DNA of 64,000 nucleotides, from IMG/VR virus record IMGVR_UViG_3300033177_000258; one strand, 5' to 3'. Both the position numbers and the translations under genes were made by a program. The notes beneath the pieces are model-generated. The model was not told the origin of the DNA. It did not search any database and saw only the letters and a program-made list of their open reading frames with translations. The DNA comes from a virus (taxonomy: Duplodnaviria > Caudoviricetes). Below, in pieces: positions 3,001 to 64,000 of this stretch. Numbering within the stretch: position 1 is the stretch's first letter; every line of letters starts with the position of its first letter.

Positions 3001-6000
3001 CCGCTCATTCGATGAGGTTGCCACACACGCCCGCAACCTGAGCGCCGTGTTTGACGAGCTGGCCCGAGACGCTCGCGGCGCCGGCAACGCCATGACTGAT
3101 GAGGGCGCGTTCTACGGTGAAGTCGGCCGCGAGAAGATGCGGGTCGCGGGCCAAGAGGTTGGCGTGCGCTTCCTCCGCACTGCTGGCGGCGAAGTCATCG
3201 CGTCTCCAGAAATGGGACGCTCCATCCAGGCACTGCCCACACCCCAGGCACACGCTGAGGTCCAGAACCTGCTCAGGATGAGGGCCCAGGAAATCGAGAA
3301 GAGCCTGGACGCTCTCTCACAGGTTCCTGGCATCGGTAACCTGCGCAGCATGGGGCGTGTCTACGACAAGGTTCCGGTCCAGTGGACCAGCCCTGGCGGG
3401 CACACTCTCCTCGAACAGCAGTACAGCATGACGCAGACGGCTCGCGGCGTCAAGGCCATCCCTGAGCAGGGGCAGCTCGGCTTCGCTCGTGTGGGCGGAG
3501 ACATCACCAACGCCATCGAGAAGGTTGGTCTGTGGGCGGTAGCCACCGGCGCCGTCTACAACTTCATGGCGGCGGTTCGTGGCGCCTACAGCCTCATGAC
3601 CAAGTTCGAAGAAGAGCTGGCCACCAGCCGCGTTCTGCAGCCCGGCTACAGCGACCTGGGGCGCGTGCGCAAAGAGTTCATCGGCATCGCCAATGACTAC
3701 GGCCAGTCTCTGACCAACGTTACCCAGGCGGCTCACCTCTGGGAGCGCCAGTACAAGAACGTCTACCAGGTCCTGGAACTCACCCGCGAGAGCATCAAGC
3801 TCTCCAAGGTGGACAACATTGACTTGGCCCAGGCTAACAAGTACCTCGAAGCCACCATTAACGAAATGGGCTTCGCGGCATCTGATGTTGGCCGCATCGT
3901 TGATAGCTGGACCAACGTCACCAACAACGCCCAGGTTACGATGGAAGACCTGGCTGAGGGTGTGGCTCGGGCCGGCGCCTCGGCCAAGATGGCCGGCGTT
4001 GACTTCGACACGCTCAACGGTCTTATCGCTGGCGGCGTGCGCGCCACTGGCGCCGCTGGTTCCGAAATCGGGAACATGCTCAAGACCGTGTTCGCGAAGA
4101 TGTACACGACGGACGCGGCTCGTGAGCTCAACCAGATTGGTGTCGCCACTCATGAAGTCGTCAACGGCGTGCGAGAGTTGCGCCCGGCGCAGGAAATCTT
4201 GGGCGACCTGGCTAGCAAGTGGGGCACGCTCACCCGAGCTCAGCAGGAATCCATCGCCCTGGGTATGGCTGGTGGCGTAAGGCAGGTCAACCGCCTCTCC
4301 GCCGTTCTGGGCGACTACCGCACGGTTTTGGATGCTGCAGCCAGAAGCTCCGAGGGCTTCGGGGCTGCCAACCGAGAGGTAGGCATCCGAATGGACACCT
4401 TGGCGGGCCAGTTCGCCAAGCTCAAGGCCAATGTCCAAGGTGTCATGTCCAGCTCGTTCTTCGAGGGCGGCGGCCTCAATATTGCGCGAAGCGGCGTCAG
4501 CGTCGCGCAGAATGTCGTCGGCGCTGTAAGCGCAGCTCCGCCCATGGCTCAGGGCGTTCTTGTCAACTCCCTCTACGGCATCGCTGGTGTGACCGGCCTC
4601 AACATGATGTCCCGCATCTTTGGGGGAGAGGCCGCTCTCAACATGGGCCACTTACGCATGCTGGCCAACGCAGGCCGAGCAGTGGGTCCCGTAGGAGCTG
4701 TTGAGACCGGAGTTGGGGGCGTCATCAATGCAGGAGCCAAGGCGGTAGGCGCGGCTGGGTCAGCAGTTTCTGGGTGGCTGGGTCGCAACAGCTTCGGGCG
4801 AGCCCTGCAGGAGGGTTACCGCCTGACGGCTCGTTCCCCCATTGTCGCTGCCGAGGCGGCCGAGGCGGTAGCCGCTCGTGGCGCCGTGGAAGGCTTCACG
4901 AGTTCGCTTCTGGGTGGCACTTCTATCATCGGCGGCTTCATCGGCCACATCAAGAACATGAGCCGCGTCATGGCCATCGTGATATCCGCTGTCGGCCTGC
5001 TGACCGGGGTAGGGGTTGCCGCCCACTATCTGAAGACCACGCCCGAAGAGCGCGAAATCGAGCGGGTACAGAACCGCCAGATTCGCCTGCGGCCCCTCTA
5101 TGAGGCTCGCGAGCGGGTAGACCAAATCAACCAGGACGAACGCAAGTTCGGGGCTCTTGGTATCGCCCAAGTCATTGAGCGCGACGAGCTCCAGCGTCGC
5201 ATACAGGAACTCGGGTACAAGTTTGGAGTTGGCGATGGCAGCGGCGTTGTGGGGCTCGATAGCGCATCCAAGCAGGCCGCGCTCAACGCCTACGCTGGGG
5301 CTATCGGTGACATGAGCCGAGGCCGTGGCACCGAGCGCTTGTCTGCCCTTGGAGCCACAGTTAGAGGACTCACTACCTGGGTCCCCGCCAACGAAGGCGG
5401 CATGACCGGCATCCGTCAGTCGCTGGACCTGCGCGATATGGCGGTAACCATCGGCGGCCAAAAGGCCGGGGCAGACCCCAAGCTCCAGAACCAATTGATG
5501 GCTGGGCACATGGGTGAAGCTACCCGTGAAGTCGCTATGCGTCTCGGCATCGCGGCCCCTCAGTTGCGCCAAGACGCCTCTGTCTTCGAAATCTTCGAGT
5601 CTCTCAGTCCCAATCGGTATGTGGTCGAGGGAGACTCTGCTTTGGGCGCGTTCGGGCAGGCGGCACAGTCTGGCAAGGACGCCATGCTGTACTCCTGGCG
5701 GGGTTCCAACGACCGCCGCACCGACCGTCGCGTCTACTCGTTGGGTTGGGATAATGACGCCAAGCAGTACGCGCTCACCCAAGCCACAGAGAAGGGCGAC
5801 ACTTCCCTGGTCGGCCTCTTCAAGACAGTAGAAGAGGCGCAAAGGCACATTGCTGCCTCCGGCGACAACTTCAAGGCTATCGCCGGCGACCGCAAGGCCG
5901 AGCTGACATTCCAGGAAACCACCAAGTCTCTGGAAGTCTTTGATGACCGCATCAAGCGGCTGGGCCAGACCACGACCGAAGTCATGCGGGTCATGTCGTC

Positions 6001-9000
6001 CATCAACAAGCAGTTCACAACCAGTGGCGTAGCCGTTGGTGTGGGCGCCTACGGCTCCACCGCCGCGAGTCGGCTCACCGGCCCCATGGCTGGCGCCATG
6101 AACCAGATGTACGAGGCCCAGCAGCAGTACAATGAATCCATGGGCCAGGCGGCCCTCGCCCGGCGCAACCTGCAGTCTAGCATCATGAAACGGCGCCGCA
6201 AGGGCGACACCCGCAGTGATGAAGAGATTATCCGCGATGCTCGCGAGGACGCACGCGCCGCCAAGCAAAATCAGGCCGGCGCCGCAGACTACGTATCGCT
6301 GGAAATCTCCGAGGCAGACCAAGCTCTCAATGGTTATCTGGATAGTGCGCGCCGGGCGTTGGATGTCACCCGCCAGACGGCCGAGGCCCTGCGTGAAGCC
6401 GTCGAGAACATCAAGAGCCTCCAGGACTCATCGCTTGAGCTCTACAACGTGTGGAGCGAAGTGGGGCAGGCCGTCAAGGCGAGCCGAGACGCCGCGTGGG
6501 CGATGTACGAGGTGCAGAAGACCATGGCCGCAGACGCCATGGCGTCTTCCATGTCAGCGTCCATCGGACTCGGGGGCTCTCAGCACGAAGCCGCCTTGGC
6601 GCTTGACCGCAAGTACGAAGAGGCATCGTCGCGGGCCATCTCTCAGATTGCCGGCGCCTACGTTGGCGGGATGGCCGCAAACGCCCGAGCCTTTGGGGGC
6701 GAGATGCCCATGGGCATCAGGCTGCCCAGCTTCGCTCAGGGCGGTCCTTCTGCGTACTCGCTGCTGGAGAACCAGCTCTACGCATCCTCAGACTTGGCGG
6801 GAAGCGGAGCTTACAGCGGCGCGCCCGAGAATGTGCTGAACGAAGCCGCGATGACGTTCTACCGCGCTGTGGGCATCTTCGCTGGTGCGGTTGGGGCCCC
6901 CGGTGGAAGCACCGAGGGTGCTGACACGAGCAAGGGGCGTATCTTTGGGGCGGGGCTGGCCGAAGGCGGGTTCTCTGACCGCATCGTAGCTCAGTCTCCT
7001 CACAAGAGCAAGGACAGCTTCCTCGCCTGGCTCAACAAGGGCGAGTATGTGCTGCCTGCTGGCATGGCTGCCGTATTGGGCCCGGCACTGGAGCAGGGGC
7101 GCACCAAGGGCGGCACCGGCGCCCTGCTTGGCCTGCTGAGCGGTATCCGTGGGTACGCCGAAGGCGGCTACGTTTCTCCAGATGAAGAGACCGCGCGACG
7201 CTTCATTCAGCGAGGCCAGCGCTACGGCTCTGCTGCGGGTGAGATTCCGTTCGGTAGCGCGGCTCTTCGCCGCTCCCCGGACTTGCTCCTCCGCATTGCT
7301 GAGCAACTGAACACCGAACCGGGTCTGCTCCGAGATGGTTTCGACCCCACAGCCGGTAGCAGCTCACGTGCTTTGGCCGACCTGAACTGGCTCCTGCGGA
7401 AGGGCGGGGCGTTCGGCCCGCAGTACACTGATGTAATCAGGCAGCGGCTCGCCGATGCTGGCTTGCCCGCCGCGTCAAACGCAACGCGCTTCTCTCGCTT
7501 GGCGGAGCAGGCACAGGCTGCTGGCCGCTATCACAGTTGGCCTGCAACCACGCTTCGCCGTGTAGGCCCCGCCTGGGATAGCTTCCTGGGAACCATTGGT
7601 CGTGGCGAAGAGGCGTTCATGTCGGCTTACGAGCGCTCATCTGCGGCCCTGGGGCGCGGCTTCAACCGCATGGTAGGCGGTATCGGGGCCGGCATGGACC
7701 GCACATCGCAGTTCATCATGGGGAACGAGGCTGGGGACCTGTTCCCGCGCTTGGGTCGGGGCTTCAACCGTCTGACCTCACGACCTATGGCGTGGGGCCA
7801 GCGCGCCGCCGACTGGATGTTCGAGACTGAGGGCGGCTTCAGGCCAGCAATGGCCGGCATCGGTCGTCTGCGTGCCGGTGCTTCCGGTCGCCTCGACCGC
7901 CTGTCTCAATTCATCATGGGTAACGAGGCTGGGGACTTGTTCCCGAGCATGGGGCGGGGCTTCAACCGCTTGACGGAGCGGCCCATGGCTTGGGGGGACC
8001 AGGCTCTAGACTGGTTCACCAACACCAGCGGCGGCTTCGACCCGGCCTGGGCTGCGGCACGGCGTCTCGGCGGTGGCATCAGCCGCTTTGCCGGTAACGC
8101 GCTTGACCGCACCTCACAGTTCATCATGGGCAACGAGGCTGGGGACCTGTTCCCGCGCTTGGGTCGCGGCTTCAACAACATGATGCGCCGGCCTGGGCAG
8201 TGGGGCAACAGCGCGCTCAACTGGTTTGTCGAGAACGAAGGCGGGTTCCGCCCGCTGGCGTCTGGTGCGCGGCGTCTTGGGCGAGGCATTTCCAACGCCG
8301 CCTACCGCTTCCCTGAGTTCATCATGGGCAACGAGGCTGGGGACCTGTTCCCGCGCTTGGGTCGCGGCTTCAACAACATGATGCGCCGGCCTGGGCAGTG
8401 GGGCGACAGAGCTCTCAACTGGTTCCATGAGACCGAAGGCGGGTTCCGCCCGCTAGCGACCGGAGTTCGGCGTGGGTACGACTCGCTGCGCGGCGCGTGG
8501 ATGCGTCGCGGCGGCCTGCCCGCAGCGCTGCAAGAGCCCGTAGGAATCGGAAGCACCGAGCCCGCCATCGCGCGGCCGGCCATCGCTCCCGAAGCCCCGG
8601 CCCCAGTCCTGCGCCGCCCGCGCCGCCCGGCATCCATGATGCCGCCGTCCACCATGCCCGCAAGTGCTAGAGGCATGGGCGGCAGTGAGTTTGGCGCCAT
8701 GGTCGCCGAGCAGCGGAGACGCTATCGCAGTCAGTTCACGCTTACCCCAGAGCCGGCAGCACCCACTCTGCCTCCGGTGGGCAGCCGAGCCTACTACCAG
8801 ACAGCCCGCCAGTACGGAACTGGCTACAGGGGTCTCGCTGGTCGTCCGCTGCTGGACAACGAGATTGGCTACCTCCAGAGGCTGCCCGGCCGCTTGCAGG
8901 GCATGAGTCGCGAAGAGGCGCGAGGGCTCTACGATTCTGGAAGCCAGGCGTTCTTCGAGAGGACCGGGCGCGCCCCGGCTACTTCTTCTGAGCGCCGCAT

Positions 9001-20795: not shown

Positions 20796-20811
20796 GAAGA
20801 CGACGGCGACG

Positions 20812-21012
20812 GTAGACCCGCGCGGGACGAGCCAGAAATGCTCGCGGTGCGGACACGTCGCGCGGGGCAACCGCGTGAGCCAGTCCGAGTTCCGGTGCCA
20901 GAAGTGCGGGTTCCGAATCAACGCCGACCTCAATGCGGGACGGAATGTGAAGGGGAAGTACCTGGTCCGAGAGGGCAGCGCCGTCTCGGGCGGGCCGCGT
21001 CAACCGGCCTAA
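20812..21012 (+). pseudogene. tnpB: tnpB 3' remnant (Zn ribbon plus RuvC-III)
   Basis: Translates to VDPRGTSQKCSRCGHVARGNRVSQSEFRCQKCGFRINADLNAGRNV..., with no start codon or N-terminal part. Confidence 0.85.
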
Positions 21013-21060
21013 AGCAGCGTGTTGTTTGCGGCTGCAAGCTGCCTTCGGGTAGTGGTTGAA
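20990..21060 (+). ncRNA. Putative omega-RNA (reRNA) scaffold 3' end / IS right end
   Basis: GTCAACCGGCC...GCAGCG..TTGTTT..GCTGCAAGCTGCC...GTGGTTGA parallels the right-end tails at 32698-32771 and 60314-60390. Confidence 0.55.
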
Positions 21061-21123
21061 CAACCCCGTATTTGCCGGATAGCTATAGGACAACAACAAA
21101 GCAGTTGTCAACAAGGTGATTCA

Positions 21124-31647: not shown

Positions 31648-32754
31648 ATGAAGACCACATTGAAGCTCAAACTTCTCCCATCCGCTGACCAGCACCAGGC
31701 TCTTGTCCATACCCTGGAGGTCTTCAACGCTGCCTGTAACTACCTGGGGGAAGTTGCGTTCGAGAACGGTACCGCCAACAAGCTGAAGCTCCAGAAGTTG
31801 GCCTACCACGAGACCCGAGAGCGCTTCGGGCTACCAGCCCAACTGGCCGTCCGAGCTATTGCTAAGGTCTGCGAAGCCTATAAGCGGGACAGGTCAATCC
31901 GTCCAACTTTCCGGCCACATGGTTCTGCCGTCTACGACCAGCGGGTCCTTTCATTCAAGGGCCTTGATACCGCTTCAATCCTCTCGCTGGCGGGTCGGCT
32001 CAAGGTACCAATTGTTGCCTACGCTTACGCCAGCGACCGCATCACGGCTTACGGTATGCGCGGGCAAGCAGACCTCATACTCGAACGCGGTACATTCTAC
32101 CTCTGCGTCGTAGTAGAGCTCCCCGAGCCTCTCAAGTCAGAGCCTAAAGACTGGCTCGGCGTGGACATGGGTGTCGTCAACATTACCACCGACAGCGACG
32201 GCGAGAACTTCAGTGGGGCCGAGGTCAATGGCCTACGCCGTCGCCATGCGTCACTACGGTCCAAACTCCAAAGCAAAGGCAGCCAGTCGGCTACGCGTCG
32301 GCTAAAGCAGCAGAGCGGGAAAGAGGCTCGTTTTGCCCGAGACGTGAATCACAGAATCTCCAAACATGTAGTCGCGAAAGCCCAAGGCACCGACCGTGGT
32401 ATTGCCGTCGAAGACTTGACGGGAATCCGCGAGCGGGTAACGGTTCGCAAGGCTCAGCGTCGCGCACTACATTCTTGGGGCTTCCACCAGTTGGCCTCGT
32501 TTGTCGAGTACAAGGCTGCGTTGGCAGGTGTGCCGTTTGTCAAGGTAGACCCCAAGAACACGAGCCGAACTTGTCCTGGGTGTGGTCATGTCGCGAAGGA
32601 GAATCGTCCTACTCGCGACCAGTTTCTCTGTGTGTCGTGCGGTCTCGCTGGGCCAGCCGACCACTTCGCTGCGGTCGAAATCGGCCGTAGGGCTGCAGTC
32701 AATCAGCCATACGCGGGGGCTCTGACGAACCACCTGCGAACTACGCTACTTTAG
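31648..32754 (+). CDS. tnpB: RNA-guided endonuclease TnpB, catalytic triad intact
   Basis: MKTTLKLKL, LGVDMG (RuvC-I), IAVEDL (RuvC-II), TSRTCPGC...CVSC, ADHFAA (RuvC-III). Confidence 0.95.
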   Translation: MKTTLKLKLLPSADQHQALVHTLEVFNAACNYLGEVAFENGTANKLKLQKLAYHETRERFGLPAQLAVRAIAKVCEAYKRDRSIRPTFRPHGSAVYDQRVLSFKGLDTASILSLAGRLKVPIVAYAYASDRITAYGMRGQADLILERGTFYLCVVVELPEPLKSEPKDWLGVDMGVVNITTDSDGENFSGAEVNGLRRRHASLRSKLQSKGSQSATRRLKQQSGKEARFARDVNHRISKHVVAKAQGTDRGIAVEDLTGIRERVTVRKAQRRALHSWGFHQLASFVEYKAALAGVPFVKVDPKNTSRTCPGCGHVAKENRPTRDQFLCVSCGLAGPADHFAAVEIGRRAAVNQPYAGALTNHLRTTLL

Positions 32755-53341: not shown

Positions 53342-54800
53342 TCGTGAAGAACAACAAGCACTCATAGCGGCAGCCTTTCTCCTTGAGGGAGCGGCGGAGC
53401 AACTTGCAGAAGCTAAGCTGACCAACCTGGCCTTTGTTGAGCCACTGTATCAGGCGCTGTACCAGTTGGTCTGCCGTCTTCAGCAGCAGGACCGCCAACC
53501 TCTTCTCAGCGAGGTCGCCCACCGCGCGTCGTTCGTCGCCGTCGTGGGCCAGATACTGCAGCAGACCGAGGCGCACTCTCTGAACTTCTGGCGCCAGATT
53601 ATGCACGCTGGCTCCCACGTCCATCGCGCAGAGTTCAGGGCACTGATTTCTCGCTTCAAGCAGTACGAGCGCTATGAGAGCCTGAAGTCCACCCTGCCTG
53701 AAGTCTCGACCCTGGTCACGGGCTTTGAGCAGGGGGATGTGGGTCTCGACAAGCTGGTGGGCCCGCTCGAAAAGCTCGTCATCGAGGCGCGCTCTCTCAA
53801 CACCCTGGTGCAGGGTACACCGGCCGAGCGCTGGCCCATCCTGTCGGCTACCATCGGGGACCTGGACGGAGAGTTCGTGACGACCGGCTTCCCCGACTGG
53901 GACCGCCTCATCACGAAGTCGGGAGCCAAGACCGGCCAGCCGCTCGGGAGCATCCACTTCATGTCTGCCCCGGCAGGTCACGGTAAGTCAACACTGCTCC
54001 GGTCTCTGCTGAAACAGCAGTGCTTTGGATTCAACTATCCCACCTGCTACTTCAACTTCGAGATTTCGGAGCGAGAGTTCGTAGAAGACATGTTCGCCGC
54101 TGTCATGAACATCAGCCCCTACCAGAAATGGGACTGGATAAAGCGGTTCGAGGCGGACGGCATAGACCGCAACACCTCCTTGGCCAAGTGGGACGAGACC
54201 CGCAAGATGTTCGCCGAGTACATGGTCCAACTGGCGACCCGGAACATCTTCGATGTCATCCACCACATGGCGTTCGAGCTGGAGGAAGTGCAGACCATCA
54301 TTGAGACGCGCTACCGCCAGGGCTACCGCATCTTCATGATAGACACCATCAACCGCATCAAGCACCGCAACGCGCGCGGGCAGCGGCACGACGAGCTGGA
54401 GACCATCATCTACGCGCTGGAACAGCAGGCGCTCCGCCTGAACTGCATCATCAACTGTGCAGCCCAGGAGAACCGGGACAAGTGGAAGCGGGTAGATAAG
54501 ACCCCCACTGTCGCCGACTTGGCCGGCGCCTCCGCCATTGAGAAGGCGGCCTACAGCGTGACGCAGTTGTACCGTACCGACTACTACACGGGTGGTCAGG
54601 TGGACTACTCCGAGGGCATCATCACCAAGGCGCGTGGGCGCGGGGTCAGCAAGGACAGCCGGTTCCGGCTTCTCTTCTCTCGCCAGAACCATTGCTACAT
54701 CCCGTACCCGGAAAGCCAGGGCGACAAGGTGGTTGTCGCTGGTGGAGCAACCGCTTCACTGCCGCCCATGGGTGGGGCCGTCATTTCGTCGGGAGGGTAA
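53313..54800 (+). CDS. dnaB: DnaB-like (SF4) replicative helicase
   Basis: TTGFPDWDRL, Walker A APAGHGKST, FNFEIS, FMIDTIN, AAQENR, DLAGASAIEKAA, KARG. Confidence 0.85.
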   Translation: MAQSAFTPPSREEQQALIAAAFLLEGAAEQLAEAKLTNLAFVEPLYQALYQLVCRLQQQDRQPLLSEVAHRASFVAVVGQILQQTEAHSLNFWRQIMHAGSHVHRAEFRALISRFKQYERYESLKSTLPEVSTLVTGFEQGDVGLDKLVGPLEKLVIEARSLNTLVQGTPAERWPILSATIGDLDGEFVTTGFPDWDRLITKSGAKTGQPLGSIHFMSAPAGHGKSTLLRSLLKQQCFGFNYPTCYFNFEISEREFVEDMFAAVMNISPYQKWDWIKRFEADGIDRNTSLAKWDETRKMFAEYMVQLATRNIFDVIHHMAFELEEVQTIIETRYRQGYRIFMIDTINRIKHRNARGQRHDELETIIYALEQQALRLNCIINCAAQENRDKWKRVDKTPTVADLAGASAIEKAAYSVTQLYRTDYYTGGQVDYSEGIITKARGRGVSKDSRFRLLFSRQNHCYIPYPESQGDKVVVAGGATASLPPMGGAVISSGG

Positions 54801-54806
54801 AGCCTC

Positions 54807-56078
54807 ATGAACGAGCAGGCCGTGCGACAGACGTACAGCATACTGGGCCACAAGATTGGCACCCACATCCGCATGCTGGACCCCAAAGGCGAGCGCCGCC
54901 CCCAGATGCTGGATGTCCAGGGAGAGGAAGAGTTCGTGCGCGCTTGCGCGGAGGCCGGCGAAGACTGGCACATCTACGTGGGCTGCAACGAGCGCGTCTC
55001 GGCTGGCGCCAACGGGGTCATGTCCATCGGCAGCGTCCTGATTGACATTGACCCGCAACTGGCCGGCAACGAGGGCACCAAGTGGGCCATCGCGGCCGCC
55101 GAGACCATCGCGCGGTACTCCATCGCCGAGAATATCCATGAGTACCCATTGGTGGCCTGCAGCGGCAACGGCGCCTACGTGTGGTTCTGCACGCCCCGCA
55201 TCCCGCCCGGAGACACGGCGGAGCGCCAGTCGCTCCGGTTGGCTCTGCGCAAGCTCGGGCTCTATCTGGCCGAGAAGGTCGCCGACTTCCCGGTCAAGGT
55301 AGACGTGCAGGTGACGGCCGACATCGCCCGCATCATCCGGGTCATTGGGACCCGCAACATCAAGGGCCGCTACGCCGACAGCGAGGCCGGCCTCGATGCT
55401 CGCTGGGCCAAAATGAGCTTCTGGCTCTTCCCGCCCAAGCGGCACGAGAGCCCGAACTTCTGGCCCTTCGTGGAGGCGCTCCGCGAGCGCTACAAGCACA
55501 AGGACGTAGACGCTACCCACATTCTTCCTGTGCCGGCACCAGGCGCTCTTGACTTCTTTTTCAAGAACTGCCCGCGCATGGCCAGCTTGGCCGGTCGCAG
55601 CAACACCATGGGAGACCTCAACGAACTGGAGGACTACCAGCTCTGGCTGAGCTTCGGAGCCAACCTGGTCAAAGCCTGCGGTCAGATTGGCGCCGCAGAG
55701 TGGAAACGGGTCTCCGAGCAGGCCCCGAAGTTCGACCCTTGGAACTTCGATGAAAGCAACTCTCGGAACAAAGTGCAGGAGGTGATTCACTGGAACGGCC
55801 CGCCCACGTGCGCCAACATGGGGTGCAACATCGCGGGCAACCCCAACTGCCCCAAAGCCCCCGCTGGCTGGGCGTTCAGATACGCTGGGGCGCTCGTGAC
55901 AGCCGCACGCTTCGACGGCATCCCGCCGCACATGATGGAAGCTCGCCTGATGCAGCTTCTGCTGGACTCAGACTTCCACATGGAACAGGCGCTTGATGCA
56001 CAGACGACAGCCGACCAGAGACTGCACATTGAGACGGTCGGACAGATTCGGGAACTGCTATACGGCCGGCTTCGCTGA
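54807..56078 (+). CDS. Archaeo-eukaryotic primase (AEP)-like protein with Cys-rich PriL-like C-terminus
   Basis: LIDID, SGNGAYVW, DIARIIRVIGTRN.K; C-terminal CPRM...PPTC...C...CP. Confidence 0.75.
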   Translation: MNEQAVRQTYSILGHKIGTHIRMLDPKGERRPQMLDVQGEEEFVRACAEAGEDWHIYVGCNERVSAGANGVMSIGSVLIDIDPQLAGNEGTKWAIAAAETIARYSIAENIHEYPLVACSGNGAYVWFCTPRIPPGDTAERQSLRLALRKLGLYLAEKVADFPVKVDVQVTADIARIIRVIGTRNIKGRYADSEAGLDARWAKMSFWLFPPKRHESPNFWPFVEALRERYKHKDVDATHILPVPAPGALDFFFKNCPRMASLAGRSNTMGDLNELEDYQLWLSFGANLVKACGQIGAAEWKRVSEQAPKFDPWNFDESNSRNKVQEVIHWNGPPTCANMGCNIAGNPNCPKAPAGWAFRYAGALVTAARFDGIPPHMMEARLMQLLLDSDFHMEQALDAQTTADQRLHIETVGQIRELLYGRLR

Positions 56079-56119
56079 GCGAAGCGCGGTCAGATAGAAC
56101 CAACACACGGAGGTAGGAC

Positions 56120-57049
56120 ATGTACGCACAGCAGCAGCCGCAGATTTACGCCAACCAGGTGTACCTCATGGGGGTCATCCGCCGCGTCAACGTGTCGGAG
56201 AAGTTCGGGAGTATGACCCTCAACACCCTGCGCTACGGGCAGAAGAATGGCCAGCCCATCACCCTGCCGCGCAACTTCCTCATCAACTCGTTCGCCGACA
56301 CGGCGGCCCTGCCCGCCTTGCAGCAAGGACAGCCGCAGATTGGCATGGTCGTTGAGGTCTGGGGAGAGCTCGACTTCGGCAAGGTGGGAGGCCAGGACAG
56401 CGAGACCGTCACCCTAGTGCGCGCCACCAACATCGTCGTCCACCCCGAGTTCGGTCTGCAGAACGTGATGGAGTATTCCAATGGCTCCGTCGTGGCCGTC
56501 AGTCCGCAGGACATCGCCTACCAGCAGCAGATGAAGCAGGCCCAGGCGCAGCAGCATGCACCGCAGCCCGGCTATGCCCCGCAGCCCGGCTATGCCCCGC
56601 AGCCGGCCCCGGCTCCGCAGTACGCGCCGCAGCCGGCCCCGGCTCCGCAGTACGCGCCGCAGCCGGTCCCGGCTCCGCAGTACGCCCCGCATCCGGTCCC
56701 GGCTCCGCAGTACGCCCCGCAGCCGGCCCCGGCTCCGCAGTACGCGCCGCAGCCCGCCCCGGCCCCGGCCCAAGCTCCCGCGCCGCAGCCCGCCCCGGCC
56801 CCGGCCCAAGCTCCCGCGCCGCAGCCCGCCCCGGCCCCGGCCCAAGCTCCCGCGCCGCAGCCCGCCCCGGCCCCCGTGGCTCCCGGCCAAGTGGTGCCGC
56901 CCCCGGTAGCGCCGCAGCCGCAGAGCCCGATGCCCGAGAAGGCGCAGGTCGCGCCGCCGCAGGCCACTGGCCCAATCGTTCCTCCCGCCAATGCGGGAGT
57001 GCCCACCGTACCCTATCCGCCTGAGTTGGACCAGGCTACCCAGGGATAG
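56120..57049 (+). CDS. SSB-like OB-fold protein with long Pro/Ala/Gln tail
   Basis: NQVYLMGVI and GMVVEVWGEL are SSB-like strands; strong RBS GGAGGT; replication context. Confidence 0.65.
   Translation: MYAQQQPQIYANQVYLMGVIRRVNVSEKFGSMTLNTLRYGQKNGQPITLPRNFLINSFADTAALPALQQGQPQIGMVVEVWGELDFGKVGGQDSETVTLVRATNIVVHPEFGLQNVMEYSNGSVVAVSPQDIAYQQQMKQAQAQQHAPQPGYAPQPGYAPQPAPAPQYAPQPAPAPQYAPQPVPAPQYAPHPVPAPQYAPQPAPAPQYAPQPAPAPAQAPAPQPAPAPAQAPAPQPAPAPAQAPAPQPAPAPVAPGQVVPPPVAPQPQSPMPEKAQVAPPQATGPIVPPANAGVPTVPYPPELDQATQG
56561..56875 (+). repeat. Coding tandem repeats (18-, 30- and 36-bp units)
   Basis: PQPGYA x2, PQPAPAPQYA-like x5, PQPAPAPAQAPA x3. Confidence 0.95.
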
Positions 57050-57085
57050 GGTCGGCCGTCAAGCAGGAGGCTTCGAAGATGTCTA

Positions 57086-57697
57086 ATGCCCAAAAGGATG
57101 GATGAAGCGGTCGCCGTTCTTCTGCGGACCATCAAGAGTGTGAACTCCAAGCCCGTAGAAGAGCAGACCGAGGAAGAGAAGAAGCAAGCCGCCGACGCGT
57201 TCGGTCGCCTCGTGAAAACGGGTGAGAAGTTCATACGGTTCTGGACGCGCAAGATGATATTGTGCGGCAAAGACGAAGGGGAAGCCAAGAGCTGGGTCAT
57301 CATGTGGCTGCACGAAATAGCCATGACCCACAACATGGACAATCCCTTCTTTTGGGCAAGCGCCGCTTTCTGCATCAACCGGAAACGGCAGCACTATGTG
57401 GATGCTGTCAGGAAACAGAACGACCGGGAGTTCGTGATGGACGTGGCCAAGGACGAAGCCTGTCAGGCTGTCCCCTGCGACCAGAGCGCCTCCCGGCAAA
57501 CGAATATCCTGGCGTCCCAAGTGAACAACGCTGTAGACCGGGTGCTGGATGCTGAAGAGCGAGAGCTCCTGTACTGGGTGGTGGACGGCGGGACGTACAA
57601 AGACTTCGCATCCATGAAGGGCATCTCTGCCCGCGAAGTCTCACAGCGCATGGGAGCCATTCGCAACAAAGTCAAAGCACAGGTCGGAGAACTCTAA
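57086..57697 (+). CDS. Sigma-factor-like protein (region-4 HTH)
   Basis: LDAEERELLYW...TYKDFASMKGISAREVSQRMGAIRNKVK; size of an ECF-like sigma. Confidence 0.65.
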   Translation: MPKRMDEAVAVLLRTIKSVNSKPVEEQTEEEKKQAADAFGRLVKTGEKFIRFWTRKMILCGKDEGEAKSWVIMWLHEIAMTHNMDNPFFWASAAFCINRKRQHYVDAVRKQNDREFVMDVAKDEACQAVPCDQSASRQTNILASQVNNAVDRVLDAEERELLYWVVDGGTYKDFASMKGISAREVSQRMGAIRNKVKAQVGEL

Positions 57698-57698
57698 C

Positions 57699-58877
57699 AT
57701 GGCAACTGCTGATTACGAGAAGTTCGACGGCGCCCTATCACCAACCGGGGTACAGACATACATCCAGTGCCCCCTGAAGTGGTACCGGCGCTACAGGGAA
57801 GGCAAGAGGGAGTCGGCGACGGCCGCCATGATGATTGGAACCGTCTGCCATGGCGCCATGGAGCGCTTCACCAAGGCCAAGGGACAGGAGACCATCGAGA
57901 ACTGCCTCAACCAGTCCATGGCCGCCAACGACATCATCGAGTTCGGCGACTTCGCGGCCTGCCAGAAGATGGTCAAGATTGGTGCGGAGACGGTGGACCA
58001 CAACCGACTGCTCGCGACCGAGCAGTCCTTTGCGTTCCCCTTCGGGGATGTGAACATCACGGGCTTCATTGACCGGGTGGACCGCATCTCGGACGACACC
58101 ATCGAGGTCATTGACTACAAGACGGGTCTCAACCCGAAGTCGTCTTGGGAAATGGAAAGCGACCTGCAGTTGGCCATGTACTACGTGGCCGCGCGCGGGC
58201 TCTGGCCCCAATTCCCCAACGTCATCACCAGTCTGCTCTACCTGCGCACCGGCAAGAAGGTGACGCAGGGCGGGGAAGACGAGTTGGTACCCCGGCTCTA
58301 CGAGTACCTGCGGGGTGTCGTGGACCGCATCGAGGCTGGCCAGTTCGCCCCGCGCATCAACCGCTACTGTGTGTACTGCCACGTGAAGCACGAGTGCGAG
58401 GAGTACATGAAGCTGGACGAGCGGCTGCGCGCCCTGCTGGAGCAGCCCACCACCGACCCGGCAGCGGCCTTCGCTCGCTACGAGCGCTTTGCCGAAATCA
58501 GCTCCACCTCCGAGAAGGAGAAGAAGGGGCTCCAGGAGCAGCTCATTGCTCAGATGGAGGCGGCCGGCGTTGGCGAACAGACGGTTGGCGAGCGGGTATA
58601 CTCCACGACCCAGCGGGTGACGCGAGACACCGACACGCGCATCGCGTTCAACATCCTGCAGAACTACGGCGTGCCCATGGAGGAAATCCTGGCGGCCATG
58701 TCGTTCGGGGCTTCGGCTCTCGATGAACTGCTGGAGCGTCACGCGGCGCACCTGCCAGGACTGGAGGACACCATCAAGACGGCCCAACGGATGAAAGCCA
58801 CTTCGTCGTGGCTCACATCGAAAGCGCTTACCCCCAAGCTGCGCAAGGGCAGCGGCGGCGGCCGGCGCAAGTCGTAA
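57699..58877 (+). CDS. PD-(D/E)XK RecB/Cas4-like nuclease
   Basis: LSPT...CPLKW, GTVCH, GFIDRVD, VIDYKTG, QLAMY, CVYC....C. Confidence 0.9.
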   Translation: MATADYEKFDGALSPTGVQTYIQCPLKWYRRYREGKRESATAAMMIGTVCHGAMERFTKAKGQETIENCLNQSMAANDIIEFGDFAACQKMVKIGAETVDHNRLLATEQSFAFPFGDVNITGFIDRVDRISDDTIEVIDYKTGLNPKSSWEMESDLQLAMYYVAARGLWPQFPNVITSLLYLRTGKKVTQGGEDELVPRLYEYLRGVVDRIEAGQFAPRINRYCVYCHVKHECEEYMKLDERLRALLEQPTTDPAAAFARYERFAEISSTSEKEKKGLQEQLIAQMEAAGVGEQTVGERVYSTTQRVTRDTDTRIAFNILQNYGVPMEEILAAMSFGASALDELLERHAAHLPGLEDTIKTAQRMKATSSWLTSKALTPKLRKGSGGGRRKS

Positions 58878-58910
58878 CCATCACTCCTCAAGGAACGGAG
58901 AACAAGGACC

Positions 58911-59132
58911 ATGTGGGAAAAGATTAGGCAGGCTATCCGGCAATTCAGCGTTGAGCGTCTCGGGCTGGTCGTTGAGAAGACCAACCTGGAGCAGAAGAAG
59001 GACAAGGACGGCATTGACGTGGTGAAGGTCACCATCGTGCTGACCGGCACCAAGGAGCAGCTCGAACTGGCGGCGGCCGCCATCCCCGACAGCATCTTCA
59101 GCTACGGCGAAGACGAGGAAGACGGCGGGTAG
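58911..59132 (+). CDS. Small hypothetical protein
   Basis: RBS AAGGA; genome-typical codon usage. Confidence 0.55.
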   Translation: MWEKIRQAIRQFSVERLGLVVEKTNLEQKKDKDGIDVVKVTIVLTGTKEQLELAAAAIPDSIFSYGEDEEDGG

Positions 59133-59156
59133 CAAACCCGCCTCGCGGTGAACATA

Positions 59157-59837
59157 ATGGGCGTAGGCATTGGTAGCGCGAACTCTGAAGAGTTCGACAG
59201 ATTTCTGGAGAGACTGTCCAATAGCAGCGCGACCGACCGGGTAGATGCGCTGGTGACCTTGGCTGTCAGCAACCCGGAGAGTGCCTACGCCCTTTTGATT
59301 CATGCCCTGGCTACACCCCAGGAGTTCGTGAGCTTCATCGAGCGGGTGAGCCAGCAGCGCGGCATAGGCTCTGGTTTGAAGCGCGCCCTCACGGCTGTTC
59401 TTTCTTCAGCTCCTCCGAACTGGTTTGTTGGCCTGCCGGCCATCGAGTCTTTGGACGGCCGGGAGTGGAGCTGGCGCAAGGTTGTCCAGATACTACATCC
59501 GAAGGGTAGCAACTTCGAGCAGGAGTTGCGGTTCGCCTACATGGCGGGAGCAATACCTGAAGCGGGGCGTATCGAAGCAGAGCGGCTTATCGAGGTGATT
59601 GGCATTGGCAGACCTCATTCAGGTCCAGGTCAAAGGAACACACTGGCGACTGGGATTCGTGGCGTCAGCACCTGGTTTCAACCAGTACAAGCAGGAGGAC
59701 CTGGAGACATTGTGCGAGCAGGCGGGGGCGACGCTGATGGCGATGCTGCTGATGCCTCAGCATGCTCAGGAGAGCTTCCAGATGCTGAGGGACATGCAGT
59801 TCCGCCTGGCGGAGAAAGCCCAGAACCAGTTGGATAG
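59157..59837 (+). CDS. Truncated TROVE-domain-like protein (mini-Ro)
   Basis: RGIGSGLKRAL...WSWRKVVQILHPKGSNFEQELRFAYM resembles TROVE helices (compare RDAIRISRPKPTSPEQEALFDWL in rsr). No vWA domain; the last ~80 codons overlap the next ORF. Confidence 0.55.
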   Translation: MGVGIGSANSEEFDRFLERLSNSSATDRVDALVTLAVSNPESAYALLIHALATPQEFVSFIERVSQQRGIGSGLKRALTAVLSSAPPNWFVGLPAIESLDGREWSWRKVVQILHPKGSNFEQELRFAYMAGAIPEAGRIEAERLIEVIGIGRPHSGPGQRNTLATGIRGVSTWFQPVQAGGPGDIVRAGGGDADGDAADASACSGELPDAEGHAVPPGGESPEPVG

Positions 59838-59850
59838 AGGACAGACCTAA
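59599..59850 (+). CDS. Small hypothetical protein
   Basis: GAGGTGA RBS with TTG start (59599 or 59605); its stop overlaps the next ATG (TAATG). Confidence 0.5.
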   Translation: MALADLIQVQVKGTHWRLGFVASAPGFNQYKQEDLETLCEQAGATLMAMLLMPQHAQESFQMLRDMQFRLAEKAQNQLDRGQT

Positions 59851-60335
59851 TGCCGCGCGGCAGGATGAAGCAGAAGACCAAGGACGAACTCAGAGAAGAG
59901 CTGCGGCTGGCGAAGGAGCGAGAGGCCGCGCTTCGTGACGAGTTGGCCGCCCTGCGCGAGGGCGTCTTGGGCGCCGCGTCGGATGCTCCCATCGTTGTTG
60001 TCGTGGGGCTGAGCGAGACCTTCGAGCCATTCATGGAAGCTGTCCGCCCCGTGCCGGTTCCCGCGTTCGCTATGGATGCTATGGCGGCGCATCTATCCCG
60101 CATGTCTGCCGCGTCATCGCACCGCGAGGTGGATGATGTCGGCCCCAGGGTCACCCAGACTGAAACCCACATCCGCGAGCTCTACAAGCGTATTGGCGAA
60201 TTGTCCGAAGTCCAGCAGAAGACGATGGAGTCGCTGGGGGGTTTGTCGGCCCTGATTAGGAGCATCGTGGATGGCAGGGAGCTGGGCATCTTCGGTGGAG
60301 AGGAGCAGCAAACGTCAACTACTGTTGGGCCCTAA
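59850..60335 (+). CDS. Coiled-coil hypothetical protein; last codons come from an inserted element end
   Basis: Heptad-rich N-terminus; the stop lies inside the 60314-60626 element. Confidence 0.55.
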   Translation: MPRGRMKQKTKDELREELRLAKEREAALRDELAALREGVLGAASDAPIVVVVGLSETFEPFMEAVRPVPVPAFAMDAMAAHLSRMSAASSHREVDDVGPRVTQTETHIRELYKRIGELSEVQQKTMESLGGLSALIRSIVDGRELGIFGGEEQQTSTTVGP

Positions 60336-60626
60336 AAACCCGCAGCTCGCAGCTAGCGAAACAACCGCCGCCGCGTATGGCTGATTGACTGCAGCCCTGC
60401 GGCCAATTTCGACCGCAGCGAAGTGGTCGGCTGGCCCAGCGAGACCGCACGACACACAGAGAAACTGGTCGCGAGTAGGACGGCTCTCCTTCGCGACATG
60501 GCCGCACCCAGGACAAGTACGGCTGGTGTTCCTGGGGTCTTCCTTGACAAACGGCACACCAGACAGGGCGGCCTTGTATTCCACTGATAACGGAGCATTG
60601 ACAGTAAATGAGCGAAAAAGGTTATG
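60314..60626 (-). mobile_element. tnpB: Internally deleted copy of the 31600-32771 tnpB element (ends and omega-RNA retained)
   Basis: Left end CATAACCTTTTTCG..GTCAATGC is joined to about 210 nt that are roughly 90% identical to the tnpB 3' end (EYKAAL.GVPFVK.DP.NTSRTCPGC...), then right end CAGTAGTTGAC. Confidence 0.9.
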
Positions 60627-60676
60627 CTTCTTGCCCCACTGCGTCTGAAGTCTCGCGGCATCATGAGGGTAAGATT

Positions 60677-61801
60677 GTGCGTACTGACATCTTAATCCCC
60701 TGCGCCGCATACCACCGCGAGCGCTTCCTCAAGGCTGTGCCCCTGTGGAACGAAGTCGCTCAGAGCAAGCTGGTGGGGCGCATCCTCGTCGTCTGCCAGG
60801 GCTGGTACCCCGTGGAAGACCAGCTCGGCAAAGTGGACGCCCTCATTGACGTTCCATCTGACAAGTGGCAGCCCAGCGTTGCCCGCAACGCCGGCCTCTC
60901 TGCACTCGAATCCGAGCTGGTGCTGTATTGTGACGCGGATGTGGTCATGCTCCCCGACACCGTGCGGGCGCACGTCTACGCACACAAGGGGTCCGAGGAG
61001 CCCAGGCTGACGGCCAACCTGCACAAAGACATCGCCACTGATGCCCCCCTGCCTTTTACTGTCGAGGAATTGGAAGCGTTGAACGTTCCCGACATGTGGC
61101 GCTCGATGCGCGTTGACTGGCGCGTGGCCATACTCGAAGAGTGCCGCTGGCTGGAGTACCCGCCTTCAGTGCCTCTCTGGTCGCTTGGCGGGGGCAGTGG
61201 TATCTGCCTTCCCCGCGAGTGGGCCCAGGCGGTCGGTGGCTGGAACGAAGACTTCCAGGGGTGGGGCTACGAAGACGCCGAGTTCTGGTACCGCTGCCAG
61301 AAGAGCGGCCTCAAGTTCGAGTTCATCAAGCAGTACGCCTACCACCAGCAGCACGAGGTGGACATCCCGCGCCGCATCGCCGACTCGCAGGAAAACTCGC
61401 AGATGTTCACAATCGAGCGCGACAGTTGCAAGGTCACCTACATCGCTGATGCCGTGACGGATGACCTGGCCCAGCTTGTGCTCGACTCCGAGTACAATGC
61501 CGAAGTCATCGGCGCCTTCCCGCTCAACATGGCCAGCCCCATGGGCATCCGCTCCGTCCCGGCCGCTGCCGACCAGCCGGCCGAAGCGTTCCGCGCCTTC
61601 GCGCGCGGTTGGTACCTGTGCGATATGCGGGGCGACCGGCCCGAGCCGTCCAGTTCCGACTGGCACAGTCTCACCCACTGCGGTAGTCACACCGTCCAGC
61701 TAGGCGGGTTGGACTACATCCCCAAGTCTTCAACCGGGTTCGTGCAGCACCGGGTATCTGGAGGAGCTCATAATGTCGAGACAAGTAGCGGTCCTTACTG
61801 A
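60677..61801 (+). CDS. Glycosyltransferase (GT2 / GT7-like C-terminal motif)
   Basis: GTG start after GAGGGT; DILIP, ARNAG, YCDADV, VGGWNEDFQGWGYEDAEF. Confidence 0.9.
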   Translation: MRTDILIPCAAYHRERFLKAVPLWNEVAQSKLVGRILVVCQGWYPVEDQLGKVDALIDVPSDKWQPSVARNAGLSALESELVLYCDADVVMLPDTVRAHVYAHKGSEEPRLTANLHKDIATDAPLPFTVEELEALNVPDMWRSMRVDWRVAILEECRWLEYPPSVPLWSLGGGSGICLPREWAQAVGGWNEDFQGWGYEDAEFWYRCQKSGLKFEFIKQYAYHQQHEVDIPRRIADSQENSQMFTIERDSCKVTYIADAVTDDLAQLVLDSEYNAEVIGAFPLNMASPMGIRSVPAAADQPAEAFRAFARGWYLCDMRGDRPEPSSSDWHSLTHCGSHTVQLGGLDYIPKSSTGFVQHRVSGGAHNVETSSGPY

Positions 61802-61814
61802 CGCTGCCACCTAA
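61773..61814 (+). pseudogene. Abandoned original 5' end of the downstream glycosyltransferase
   Basis: RBS GGAGGAG plus ATG TCG AGA CAA GTA GCG GTC CTT ACT (MSRQVAVLT), homologous to MRQAAVLT at 63031. Confidence 0.75.
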
Positions 61815-62995
61815 GCGGCTTCTTGCTTGCGCGAGCTATGTGCCGGGCGTCCACCGGAACTACCTGCAACCAAGGCCACAGGATACTTGTAGCGGATGAC
61901 GTTGGGCACGTCACAGCCTGGAGCAAGCTCGCCGCGCATACCGATGCAGCGGATGTTGGTAGAGCCTACCACGTCGCGTGGGGCGCCAAAACCGCATTGC
62001 TTGCAGCGGTAGGTCCGCTGGCACTTGTTCCTGGTTCCGCAAACGGGACACGTTTGGGAACTGTACGCCTCGTCTACGGTGATTGCTCCCGCAGTCTTGT
62101 AGTCGAGTTGCGTAATGAGCCTGCGGTTGCAGGCGGTTGAGACTTGTTGGGCAGTCTTTCGAGACATCTTCTGTGCTGCGTCATTGAACGGTTCGCCGAC
62201 GTAGCACTTTGCTCCGGGGAAAGTGTCAACGACCACCCGAGTGGCTTTGTGGGTGATGTCGTTGATGCGGTTCTCCGACTTCTTTAGCAGCTTGTGTTTG
62301 CGGCGCTGGAGCCGGCCGTACTGACGGGAACCCCGGTGGCAATTCGACAGCTTGCTGCGGAGAGTTGCGAGACGTTTGGCGCGCCACTGAACCGTCGCCT
62401 TGGCTTCCCGACCCGAGACGAGTACGGTTTTTTCTCCGTCTGTGGCAGCAAGGAGAGTATTGATGCCGAGGTCAACGCCGATGGTGGAGCCGGTCGGGAT
62501 GGCGGGCTCCTCGCATTGACAAACTAGGATGATTGCACCGTAGGCGAGTCTAGCTTCCATGAGTCGGCCGGGCAGTTCGAATGGGAGACGGACAAATAGG
62601 TAACCAGAATCCCCGTGAGGGAGACGGACACTTCCATTTCTGACCACGGCACCCTGATTGGTGTAGGGGATGTCTCTGAACTCTGGTTTGTGATTGGGGT
62701 AGGATGACCCCAGGCCTCCCCTTCTTTTTGCTGTTGTGGACTTCAGGGCTTCGCAGAACTCGCGGATGATTTCCTGTACTGACTGGCTGTGGAGATTGGG
62801 GTAACGCCCCTTTGCCCACCTTCTCCAGCGCGCCTCAGAAGGCCACTTTAGTTGGCGACGACGGATACGCAGATGGCGCTCCACCAAGTCAGACCATAGG
62901 CGGCCGGAATCGCTTCGGGCAGCCGTAAAGATAGTCCACTCAGAACGAGAGTGCGGGAGCCAGTCGAGTTTTACAGACCTGTAAACTATGGGCAT
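61811..62995 (-). CDS. tnpB: RNA-guided endonuclease TnpB (second subfamily)
   Basis: LHSQSVQ, IGVDLGIN, HKATR, VGEP (RuvC-II region), EAYSSQTCPVC...CKQCG, RDVVGSTNI. Confidence 0.93.
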   Translation of the reverse strand: MPIVYRSVKLDWLPHSRSEWTIFTAARSDSGRLWSDLVERHLRIRRRQLKWPSEARWRRWAKGRYPNLHSQSVQEIIREFCEALKSTTAKRRGGLGSSYPNHKPEFRDIPYTNQGAVVRNGSVRLPHGDSGYLFVRLPFELPGRLMEARLAYGAIILVCQCEEPAIPTGSTIGVDLGINTLLAATDGEKTVLVSGREAKATVQWRAKRLATLRSKLSNCHRGSRQYGRLQRRKHKLLKKSENRINDITHKATRVVVDTFPGAKCYVGEPFNDAAQKMSRKTAQQVSTACNRRLITQLDYKTAGAITVDEAYSSQTCPVCGTRNKCQRTYRCKQCGFGAPRDVVGSTNIRCIGMRGELAPGCDVPNVIRYKYPVALVAGSSGGRPAHSSRKQEAA

Positions 62996-63000
62996 CACTG

Positions 63001-63014
63001 GAAGTATTTCGTGC
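63001..63014 (-). promoter_or_regulatory. Promoter-like motif GCACGAAATACTTC, 7 nt before the tnpB ATG
   Basis: AATACT-TCCAGTG-ATG, the same geometry as AATACT-TCCAGAC-ATG before the other tnpB. Confidence 0.55.
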
Positions 63015-63030
63015 TACAGGGAGTAGCGAC

Positions 63031-64000
63031 ATGAGACAGGCAGCCGTATTGACCAGCGTACCCATCCATCTGCTCGGGGAGGGGCAGCGTATCCCGCAGA
63101 TGCTGGGGCGCCTAAGCGAGCTGCCCGGCGTCGAGACGCACGTTGTGGAGACGCACATCTACGTGCCCGGCGCCGGCGCCGTCTACACCGGGGAGAAGGT
63201 CAAGGAGGCTCTCGACACCATCTTGCGTCAGGGCCCCACGGTCATCATCATCGCCCAGCCAGTGGCAGCGGCGCTACCCGCATTGTTGGAAGCGCAGAAG
63301 CGCGGGGCTAAACTGGTGTACGACCGCTTCGAGAGCTGGAAGGACTTCCCCGGCAACGAGACCTGGTACCGCCCCCAGCAAGAGACCGCCATCATTGTGG
63401 CCAGCGATGGCCTGGTCTCGACCTACCGCGACTCGCTCTTCGATTCCTATGACCGCCCCAAGCTGCTGCTGCCGAACGCCGCCAGCGACGCGCCACTGTG
63501 GCCCCAGACACAACTCAAGGGCTCGCGCGGCCGCAGTGTGGCTCTGGCCAGCTCGGCCGTGTACGTGGGGAGCATGGACCCCCGCTACATAGACATGGAC
63601 GCCATGCGCCATGTGGGAGAGGCGCGCCCGAGCGCCTTCTACGGCAAGCCTCCGGGCCAGCGCATCATGGAGGACGGGATGTCGCCGGTGCAGTACGGCG
63701 CCTCGGGCTGGCTGGTGGGTTGGGTGAACCATGTCAACCTGAGCTTCGCGCTCGCCTCCGGCGACGGCAAGTACAATGACCGGCGCAAGGTGGGTTTGCT
63801 CCCGTTCCTCGACATCCCGTTGACCGAGAAGGTCTCCCCCATCAAGTGGTGGGAGTACCTGCTGGCCGGCGTTCGCCCGGTCACCATGCACCTGAGCCAG
63901 GTCGCGGAAATGCCCTTCGGCGTCTACACCGACGACATCAACGCGTTCCTGTACGCGGCCATCACCGCTGCCCCGTTCTCCGATGAGGAAGCTCGCGAGG
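63031..64000 (+). CDS. GT-B (GT4-like) glycosyltransferase, 3' end outside window
   Basis: Not in the ORF track because it has no stop in the window. Translates MRQAAVLTSVP...KLVYDRFESW...LLPNAA...VYVGSM...VGLLPF...SPIKWWEYLLAG. Confidence 0.85.
   Translation, partial: MRQAAVLTSVPIHLLGEGQRIPQMLGRLSELPGVETHVVETHIYVPGAGAVYTGEKVKEALDTILRQGPTVIIIAQPVAAALPALLEAQKRGAKLVYDRFESWKDFPGNETWYRPQQETAIIVASDGLVSTYRDSLFDSYDRPKLLLPNAASDAPLWPQTQLKGSRGRSVALASSAVYVGSMDPRYIDMDAMRHVGEARPSAFYGKPPGQRIMEDGMSPVQYGASGWLVGWVNHVNLSFALASGDGKYNDRRKVGLLPFLDIPLTEKVSPIKWWEYLLAGVRPVTMHLSQVAEMPFGVYTDDINAFLYAAITAAPFSDEEARE

Follow-up and report, generated by a model that had tools for sequence, protein, structure and literature searches.

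A tnpB gene lying antisense between two genes of a large uncultured phage is proposed here to spread by homing independently of the transposase TnpA, its carrier being made immune by a recoded copy of the gene start that the guide RNA would target. The DNA analysed is a stretch of 64,000 nt from a virus of the Caudoviricetes (IMG/VR record IMGVR_UViG_3300033177_000258), hereafter the window, and positions refer to it unless a contig is named. We put the probability of this reading at roughly 50%. The cassette formed by tnpB and its omegaRNA would then, on odds that we judge to be even, behave like the intronless homing endonuclease genes of phages.

The steps envisaged are as follows. During mixed infection TnpB and the omegaRNA would cut the uninterrupted junction of related genomes, and repair of the break from the cassette-bearing genome would copy in the cassette together with a spare gene start. 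The carrier would escape on both sides of the cassette: its old copy of the junction is preceded by the right end and not by a transposon-associated motif (TAM), and its new copy would be protected by mismatches to the guide at positions 2, 4, 5 and 8 (in the window also 12) and by the loss of a TAM base. The recoding probably arose as an escape from self-targeting, and would also keep the two repeats from recombining the cassette out.

Organization of the locus

The cassette occupies approximately 61800–63018 and is antisense between two phage genes that overlap in relatives free of it. The upstream gene (60608–61801, plus strand) encodes a GT2-like glycosyltransferase (Pfam Glyco_transf_7C / Glyco_tranf_2); its true start is probably the GTG near 60676, and its orthologues in contigs L004 and L091 end at the same place. 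The cassette's right end finishes in TCA, and read on the opposite strand these three bases are the TGA stop of this gene (61799–61801). On the minus strand are an omegaRNA scaffold core of four stems (61798–61888), which overlaps the 3' end of tnpB and ends in ...GTCAG, an intact tnpB of 395 codons (61811–62998, Pfam), and a left-end remnant (62999–63018) holding a promoter-like -10 motif only. The putative guide, 16–20 nt immediately 3' of the scaffold, lies at 61778–61798 on the same strand, with its start at 61798 or 61797.

A gene start is found on either side of the cassette. The old copy of the duplicated overlap (61757–61799, plus strand) comprises a ribosome binding site (RBS; GGAGGAG, 61760–61766), an orphan ATG (61773–61775), a Ser codon and seven further codons (61779–61799). 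It is overlapped by the last nine codons of the glycosyltransferase and today opens merely a 13-codon orphan frame, ending at 61814. The new copy (63019–63054, plus strand) comprises the RBS GGGAG (63019–63023), a working ATG at 63031 and the same seven codons re-spelled at 63034–63054, without the Ser codon. The repeat extends over the RBS, giving about 42 nt in total, and is imperfect on local alignment, a deletion of 3–6 nt having removed the Ser codon. An earlier note on this DNA, made from the sequence without database searches, had described two gene starts with seven shared codons and seven base differences, six of them synonymous, and the sequence does read in this way. The same note took the gene beyond tnpB for the glycosyltransferase restarting; this is in fact the next gene, a separate one of 349 amino acids in full (63031–64000, plus strand, where it runs off the window) which matches no Pfam family.

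Relatives without tnpB at the junction were recovered through the downstream protein. In contigs L003, L004 and L005 (62% identity) the tail of the glycosyltransferase gene overlaps the start of the next gene by 29 nt, in L091 and L092 (42% identity) the two genes overlap by 26 nt, and in another cassette-free relative (44%) by 23 nt; the most distant (39%) is the sole one with the genes apart. The cassette is lacking at this junction in relatives of 39–62% identity and present in three sampled carriers. Because the orphan ATG is located exactly at the position where the gene starts in cassette-free relatives (L004/L005 and L091/L092), it is by this comparison the old, ancestral start. It had been predicted that cassette-free relatives would start the gene there and run straight on, and those found, which are 42–62% identical, do so. 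A permutation test on the DNA alone gave p = 0.007 for the 21-mer match between the two copies; the position of the orphan start is the stronger argument against chance.

Recoding of the working start

At all six synonymously differing sites the outgroup L004 carries the base of the old copy, and therefore all the substitutions fell in the new one. Following duplication, the old copy was constrained by the glycosyltransferase frame only and the new copy by its own frame only. At third positions of the glycosyltransferase frame the old copy shows no change in seven, as against changes at six of the approximately 7–8 synonymous sites of the new copy (Fisher p = 0.002–0.006). Since the glycosyltransferase tail is variable among the relatives, drift would have been expected to alter the old copy too. 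Small as the numbers are, neutral decay would not predict a guide copy that stays frozen while the working copy approaches saturation.

This asymmetry bears directly on a different explanation, in which the cassette is an inert relic: an element of the IS605 family inserted here, the downstream gene survived through a duplication, decay removed the left end, the new start, once free of the overlap, drifted at synonymous sites, and TnpB moves nothing now. Any insertion between overlapping genes would need such a duplication for viability, and three of the six changes lead toward preferred codons, both as expected of a relic. The old copy is nevertheless unchanged next to a nearly saturated new copy, and unaltered in a tail that varies in the relatives, which a relic does not account for. 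We consider this explanation unlikely, and return to it below.

GTC>GTA and the double change CTT>TTG amount to three substitutions to rare codons (usage 0.11 and 0.12), situated at guide positions 2, 4 and 5; the remaining three of the six go to commoner codons. ACT>ACC alters the base corresponding to TAM position 3. Codon optimisation was also considered as the sole cause of the recoding, and was rejected because half of the substitutions lead to rare codons.

The seventh, Val-to-Ala, difference has another origin. In L006, a near-identical contig from another run (5 differences in 1821 nt, 99.7% identity), codon 4 of the new start reads Val and all six differences are synonymous, and on this evidence the Ala codon is a recent polymorphism of the window lineage. 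Four differences between the window and L006 lie in the first 970 nt of the 349-amino-acid gene, three of them protein-changing (63041, 63178 and 63904 are among the sites).

Right end, guide and scaffold

The right end was placed by comparison with the family. Two sister cassettes, E in contig L007 (71% identity) and P7 in L008 (76%), have the last 90 nt in common up to ...GTCA and then diverge; thirty-odd relatives, from Chloroflexi-type and other genomes, carry the same four-stem scaffold ending in GTCAC, and copies within one genome diverge immediately past this motif. Since the family likeness stops after GTCA(C), the alignment sets the right end at 61799/61798 and the first base of the guide at 61798 or 61797. 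The guide had been predicted at 61798–61779, which is correct to within 1 nt. In a scaffold alignment (A3) of 25 sequences, consisting of three sister cassettes and 22 bacterial or viral relatives, RNAalifold revealed compensatory changes in 13 of the 19 predicted pairs.

The use of the DNA just 3' of the right end as guide is established for ISDra2 (PMC8612924), and here this DNA is antisense to the orphan start. Of the mismatches between guide and new copy (positions 2, 4, 5 and 8, plus 12 in the window), four to five fall within positions 1–12. Double mismatches in the TAM-proximal 12 nt abolish cleavage by ISDra2 TnpB (PMC10097598), and the placing of mismatches in the seed by the earlier note is upheld on this basis. 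About 20 left ends of canonical relatives define the family TAM as YTAC (TTAC or CTAC in most cases, as for IS608); at the corresponding place the recoded copy has CTGG.

Several observations weigh against homing. The statistical argument from recoding rests on seven codons only, and release from double coding constraint combined with codon preference would account for half of the six changes. One pair of the scaffold is broken, by a C-A mismatch in stem 3, and the right end closes on G where the family has C. The empty site, as reconstructed, reads CTAG or GCTA, which fits the family YTAC at three of four positions, and the site of the sister cassette P7 reads GCGA, no better a fit; unless it has come to prefer another TAM, TnpB may thus fail to cut at either site. 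Both the TAM misfit and the scaffold mismatch would be natural in an inert relic. Among the relatives recovered, no cassette-free genome was close enough to match the guide, the 62% identical relative having five mismatches to it. Scans of metagenome and viral contigs for the empty junction and the guide gave no match; the window's own sequence was unmatched too, and because the collections scanned do not contain the phage, the result says nothing on absence. Homing by itself also leaves unexplained how a cassette without a left end reaches new loci and how the 42-nt duplication originated, for which one-ended repair followed by end-joining is only a guess. The gene drive put forward in the earlier note is thus supported in part: the guide position and the ancestral start are upheld, the asymmetry of the recoding adds new support, and the imperfect TAM and the lack of a close cassette-free allele among the relatives recovered count against it.

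Where a cassette is antisense, it terminates precisely at the stop codon of the phage gene converging on it, and this codon is supplied by the right end as TGA in family 1 and as TAG in family 2. Apart from 61799–61801 in the window, this was seen in L007 at 6036–6038 and at ~3753; cassette E in this way provides the TGA of a convergent helicase gene, and cassette D a TAG.

Left end and mode of insertion

Canonical relatives begin with YTAC, followed by a left end of 110–150 nt with hairpins. In the window, only ~20–30 nt separate tnpB from the new RBS and no such hairpins with YTAC are found. What is left is a -10-like motif (63001–63010), one mismatch from GGAATACTTC, directly before the tnpB start, which is probably leaderless. 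The motif GGAATACTTC is present nine times in the window versus 1.6 expected, often directly before the start codons of tnpB and phage genes (positions include 30838, 31633, 41920, 48822 on the minus strand and 63001 on the minus strand), and looks like a -10 element for leaderless transcripts. The cassette is, moreover, flanked by the imperfect direct repeat of ~42 nt. Judged by its protein and RNA, it is a member of the TnpB-omegaRNA family that departs from a transposon in its left end and in the duplication of its target.

No tnpA is adjacent to tnpB and there is no room for one beside it, a result for this locus only, the window and the phage not having been scanned for a Y1 transposase. 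A crude motif search gave no Y1 transposase beside the canonical relatives either, and is too crude for a conclusion. Rfam returned no match at E <= 1 in 60200–63200. Having no group I intron in this search, the cassette was rejected as an IStron. The proposal that neither TnpA nor splicing is involved is thus in accord with the lack of an intron by Rfam, of left-end hairpins and of an adjacent tnpA.

A second alternative concerns the insertion itself. TnpA could have inserted a canonical element at CTAC (minus strand, 63026–63023) in a site that was already duplicated, with the near-match of the guide to the new copy a coincidence. This CTAC matches the family TAM and lies 1 nt from the start of the left-end remnant, and joining the flanks gives a plausible stop/start overlap. 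The scheme requires, however, that ~100 nt of left end was lost cleanly and that the loss stopped precisely at the promoter, and the sister cassette P7 in L008, at a different locus, has the same truncation point without YTAC beside it. Furthermore, no relative recovered via the downstream protein shows the tandem duplication without a cassette, and the frozen old copy is left without explanation. We regard canonical transposition as quite improbable here.

The TnpB protein

TnpB possesses OrfB_IS605 (RuvC) and Cas12f1-like_TNB zinc finger domains (Pfam E = 1e-12 and 4e-15). Residues D175, E268 and D341 align with D191, E278 and D361 of ISDra2, and the zinc-finger cysteines are present. Residue 268 (62195–62197) is Glu here and in copy E, and Lys in the family consensus, including P7; as most members have Lys at this position, the family may use a relocated catalytic Glu.

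Compared with P7 in L008, tnpB gives a dN/dS of 0.14 at a dS of 1.2; the 5'-truncated copy E has a higher ratio, 0.35. P7 has the same truncated left end at another locus, and therefore the low ratio indicates that the cassette both moved and stayed under selection once it had no left end. TnpB is by this measure under purifying selection in a lineage without a left end. An intact gene with this ratio, and an identical truncation at a second locus, are difficult to reconcile with an inert relic.

Purifying selection would equally be expected if TnpB and its guides were a domesticated weapon or stabiliser, destroying or excluding co-infecting relatives (allele exclusion) or otherwise benefiting the phage, with copying of the cassette incidental or absent. 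Competition is a known role of homing endonucleases in phages (review PMC13565253), and this phage carries many cassettes as well as guide-only stubs behind the promoter-like motif, which precedes some phage genes too. On the other side, no matching competitor sequence was present in the contigs scanned, and sequence cannot separate a weapon from homing because the same cut serves both. This explanation appears to us unlikely.

Other tnpB cassettes

This phage carries tnpB of three families, at least eight genes or stubs in all, and every one lies at a gene boundary. Those within the window are at 20797–21123, 31648–32754, 60314–60584 and 61811–62998; beyond it, copies B and C flank the gene for DNA polymerase III alpha, and there are two more, D and E.

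The homing interpretation gains a second case in L008, where the P7 cassette interrupts an intrinsic terminator that follows a capsid-like gene (1100–1266 and 2461–2531 of that contig). The original right arm of the terminator, a perfect 9-nt complement of the left arm, constitutes the first 9 nt of the guide position. On the left side of the cassette stand the left arm and loop and, after them, a replacement right arm that differs slightly and has a better T-run; the promoter-like motif is present on both sides. This locus appears to repeat the pattern of the window: a displaced functional element replaced on the left, with the original at the guide position. Near-matches of the guide beyond the left end were not found in cassettes F, B and D (p = 0.6–1.0), the flanking genes of which do not overlap; cassette E, truncated on its left side, gave a borderline match (14/24, p = 0.03). 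A survey of the family in IMG/VR yielded canonical elements only (L001/L095, L002/L097 and L096) and one internally deleted stub (L101). The expectation that other tnpB loci in phages would show such near-matches has a parallel in the terminator in L008; it was not borne out in F, B and D, and the survey gave no generalisation of the pattern.

The preceding gene junction in the window, which also overlaps in relatives, is occupied by a second-family tnpB stub (60314–60584, minus strand). This stub retains ~70 C-terminal codons, which share 92% identity with full copies, and its scaffold, which ends at 60314, looks intact. Its right end encodes the last seven codons and the stop of a 161-amino-acid gene (59850–60335), and its guide position is antisense to the C-terminus of this gene. 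On its left side is a degraded relic of the old junction, in which no clean duplication could be aligned. Possibly, it is a guide-only cassette served in trans. This stub and the truncated copy in L007 are also what would be expected of relics, as they show that cassettes decay in this phage.

A full-length tnpB of the second family (31648–32754, plus strand; listed with L009 4435–5601) is on the same strand as the phage genes. It has ~50 nt of left end in common with copy B, the copy situated between the Anp1-like gene and that for DNA polymerase III alpha, and its guide position covers the RBS and start of the next gene; no flanking duplication is seen and the neighbouring genes do not overlap. 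The third-family stub at 20797–21123 (plus strand) is located in the operon of virion genes; its 71 codons share 91% identity with copy C, and a structured tail comes after them. In contig L117 a guide-only family-2 scaffold (4639–4720, minus strand) is directly upstream of a gene for a 670-amino-acid DNA methylase (2589–4601, minus strand). Its guide position matches methylase codons ~19–22, 90 nt downstream, with 1–2 synonymous differences over 12–14 nt. The first ~20 codons of the methylase are unusually AT-rich, and the protein has a faint LAGLIDADG match which may indicate an intein.

Taking these loci together, we suggest tentatively, at somewhat less than even odds, that phages host a class of natural gene drives composed of TnpB and omegaRNA and independent of TnpA. 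The guide of each would correspond to the uninterrupted junction, and a re-spelled spare part, be it the start or the end of a gene or an arm of a terminator, would keep the carrier working and safe from cleavage; the intact nucleases would act in trans for guide-only stubs. This jumbo phage would hold several such drives, from three TnpB families.

Genome setting

The window is part of a large uncultured phage genome with long same-strand operons and giant virion proteins, which also encodes a PD-(D/E)XK nuclease, DnaB and DNA polymerase III alpha. The 349-amino-acid gene is followed by an Anp1-like gene and by DNA polymerase III alpha. Nucleotides 53811–64000 recur without change in a JGI metagenome contig of 195,484 bp and in a second sample. 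A DNA search with the window gave no match among GenBank phages.

Relation to known systems

In its domains and aligned RuvC residues the cassette resembles the TTAC-targeting, IS608-like TnpB-omegaRNA systems of IS200/IS605 (PMC8612924; 10.1101/2023.03.14.532601). As in other IS200/IS605 elements, the omegaRNA lies over the 3' end of the gene, the guide lies outside the right end (Karvelis 2021; Meers 2023), and the nuclease is expected to cut the element-free site. It differs in having neither left-end hairpins nor an adjacent tnpA, in its imperfect TAM fit and in its duplicated target site, those elements making no target duplication. Moreover, the empty site in IS200/IS605 homing, which follows excision, is on the sister chromatid, whereas here it would be in another genome.

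TnpA-independent drive by TnpB has been shown experimentally for insertion sequence (IS) elements in multicopy plasmids (Mears et al. 2025, PMC11870625), where element-free copies of a co-resident replicon are cut and inheritance is biased without TnpA, as proposed here. Those drives are whole IS elements, with no interrupted genes, spare gene end or recoding. A 2026 review (PMC13565253) includes, as a theoretical possibility, 'non-restorative homing' in which co-infecting phages are the recipients. The idea is accordingly less new than was claimed for it, since the plasmid drive and the phage homing proposal precede it; a duplicated, recoded target as a means of self-immunity was not found described in the literature searched.

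The likeness to SegF, SegB and Mob of phage T4 (PMC13565253) is that a nuclease gene is situated between conserved phage genes; here too, substitutions close to the gene would distinguish self from non-self, and the gene would spread in mixed infection with co-conversion. The self site of the T4 nucleases is naturally diverged, whereas the cassette described here would recognise its target through an RNA guide, and its self allele is a duplicated, synonymously re-spelled copy. IStrons (IS607/IS605 TnpB in group I introns; PMC10690162) also place a TnpB element within genes without destroying them; they restore the gene by RNA splicing, and here it is restored at the DNA level by the spare start.

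A further parallel comes from mitochondria. Paquin, Laforest and Lang are said to have described, in 1994, an endonuclease element in the atp6 gene of Allomyces which brings a diverged replacement gene end and orphans the old one. That nuclease is protein-guided and mitochondrial, and its element replaces the 3' end of the gene, as opposed to the 5' end here.

Biological implications

The prediction lends itself to direct testing, since the sequence shows both the guide and its target. If the proposal is true, RNA-guided nucleases in phages would fill the role that protein homing endonucleases have in T4-like phages, and the recoded spare part would be a built-in means to occupy overlapping or essential genes. 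It would explain the spread and persistence of tnpB in viruses without a transposase, its precise siting at gene boundaries, and how escape of a target from its guide shapes coding sequence. The cassette would then be a natural gene drive, self-immune and repairing the gene that it interrupts.

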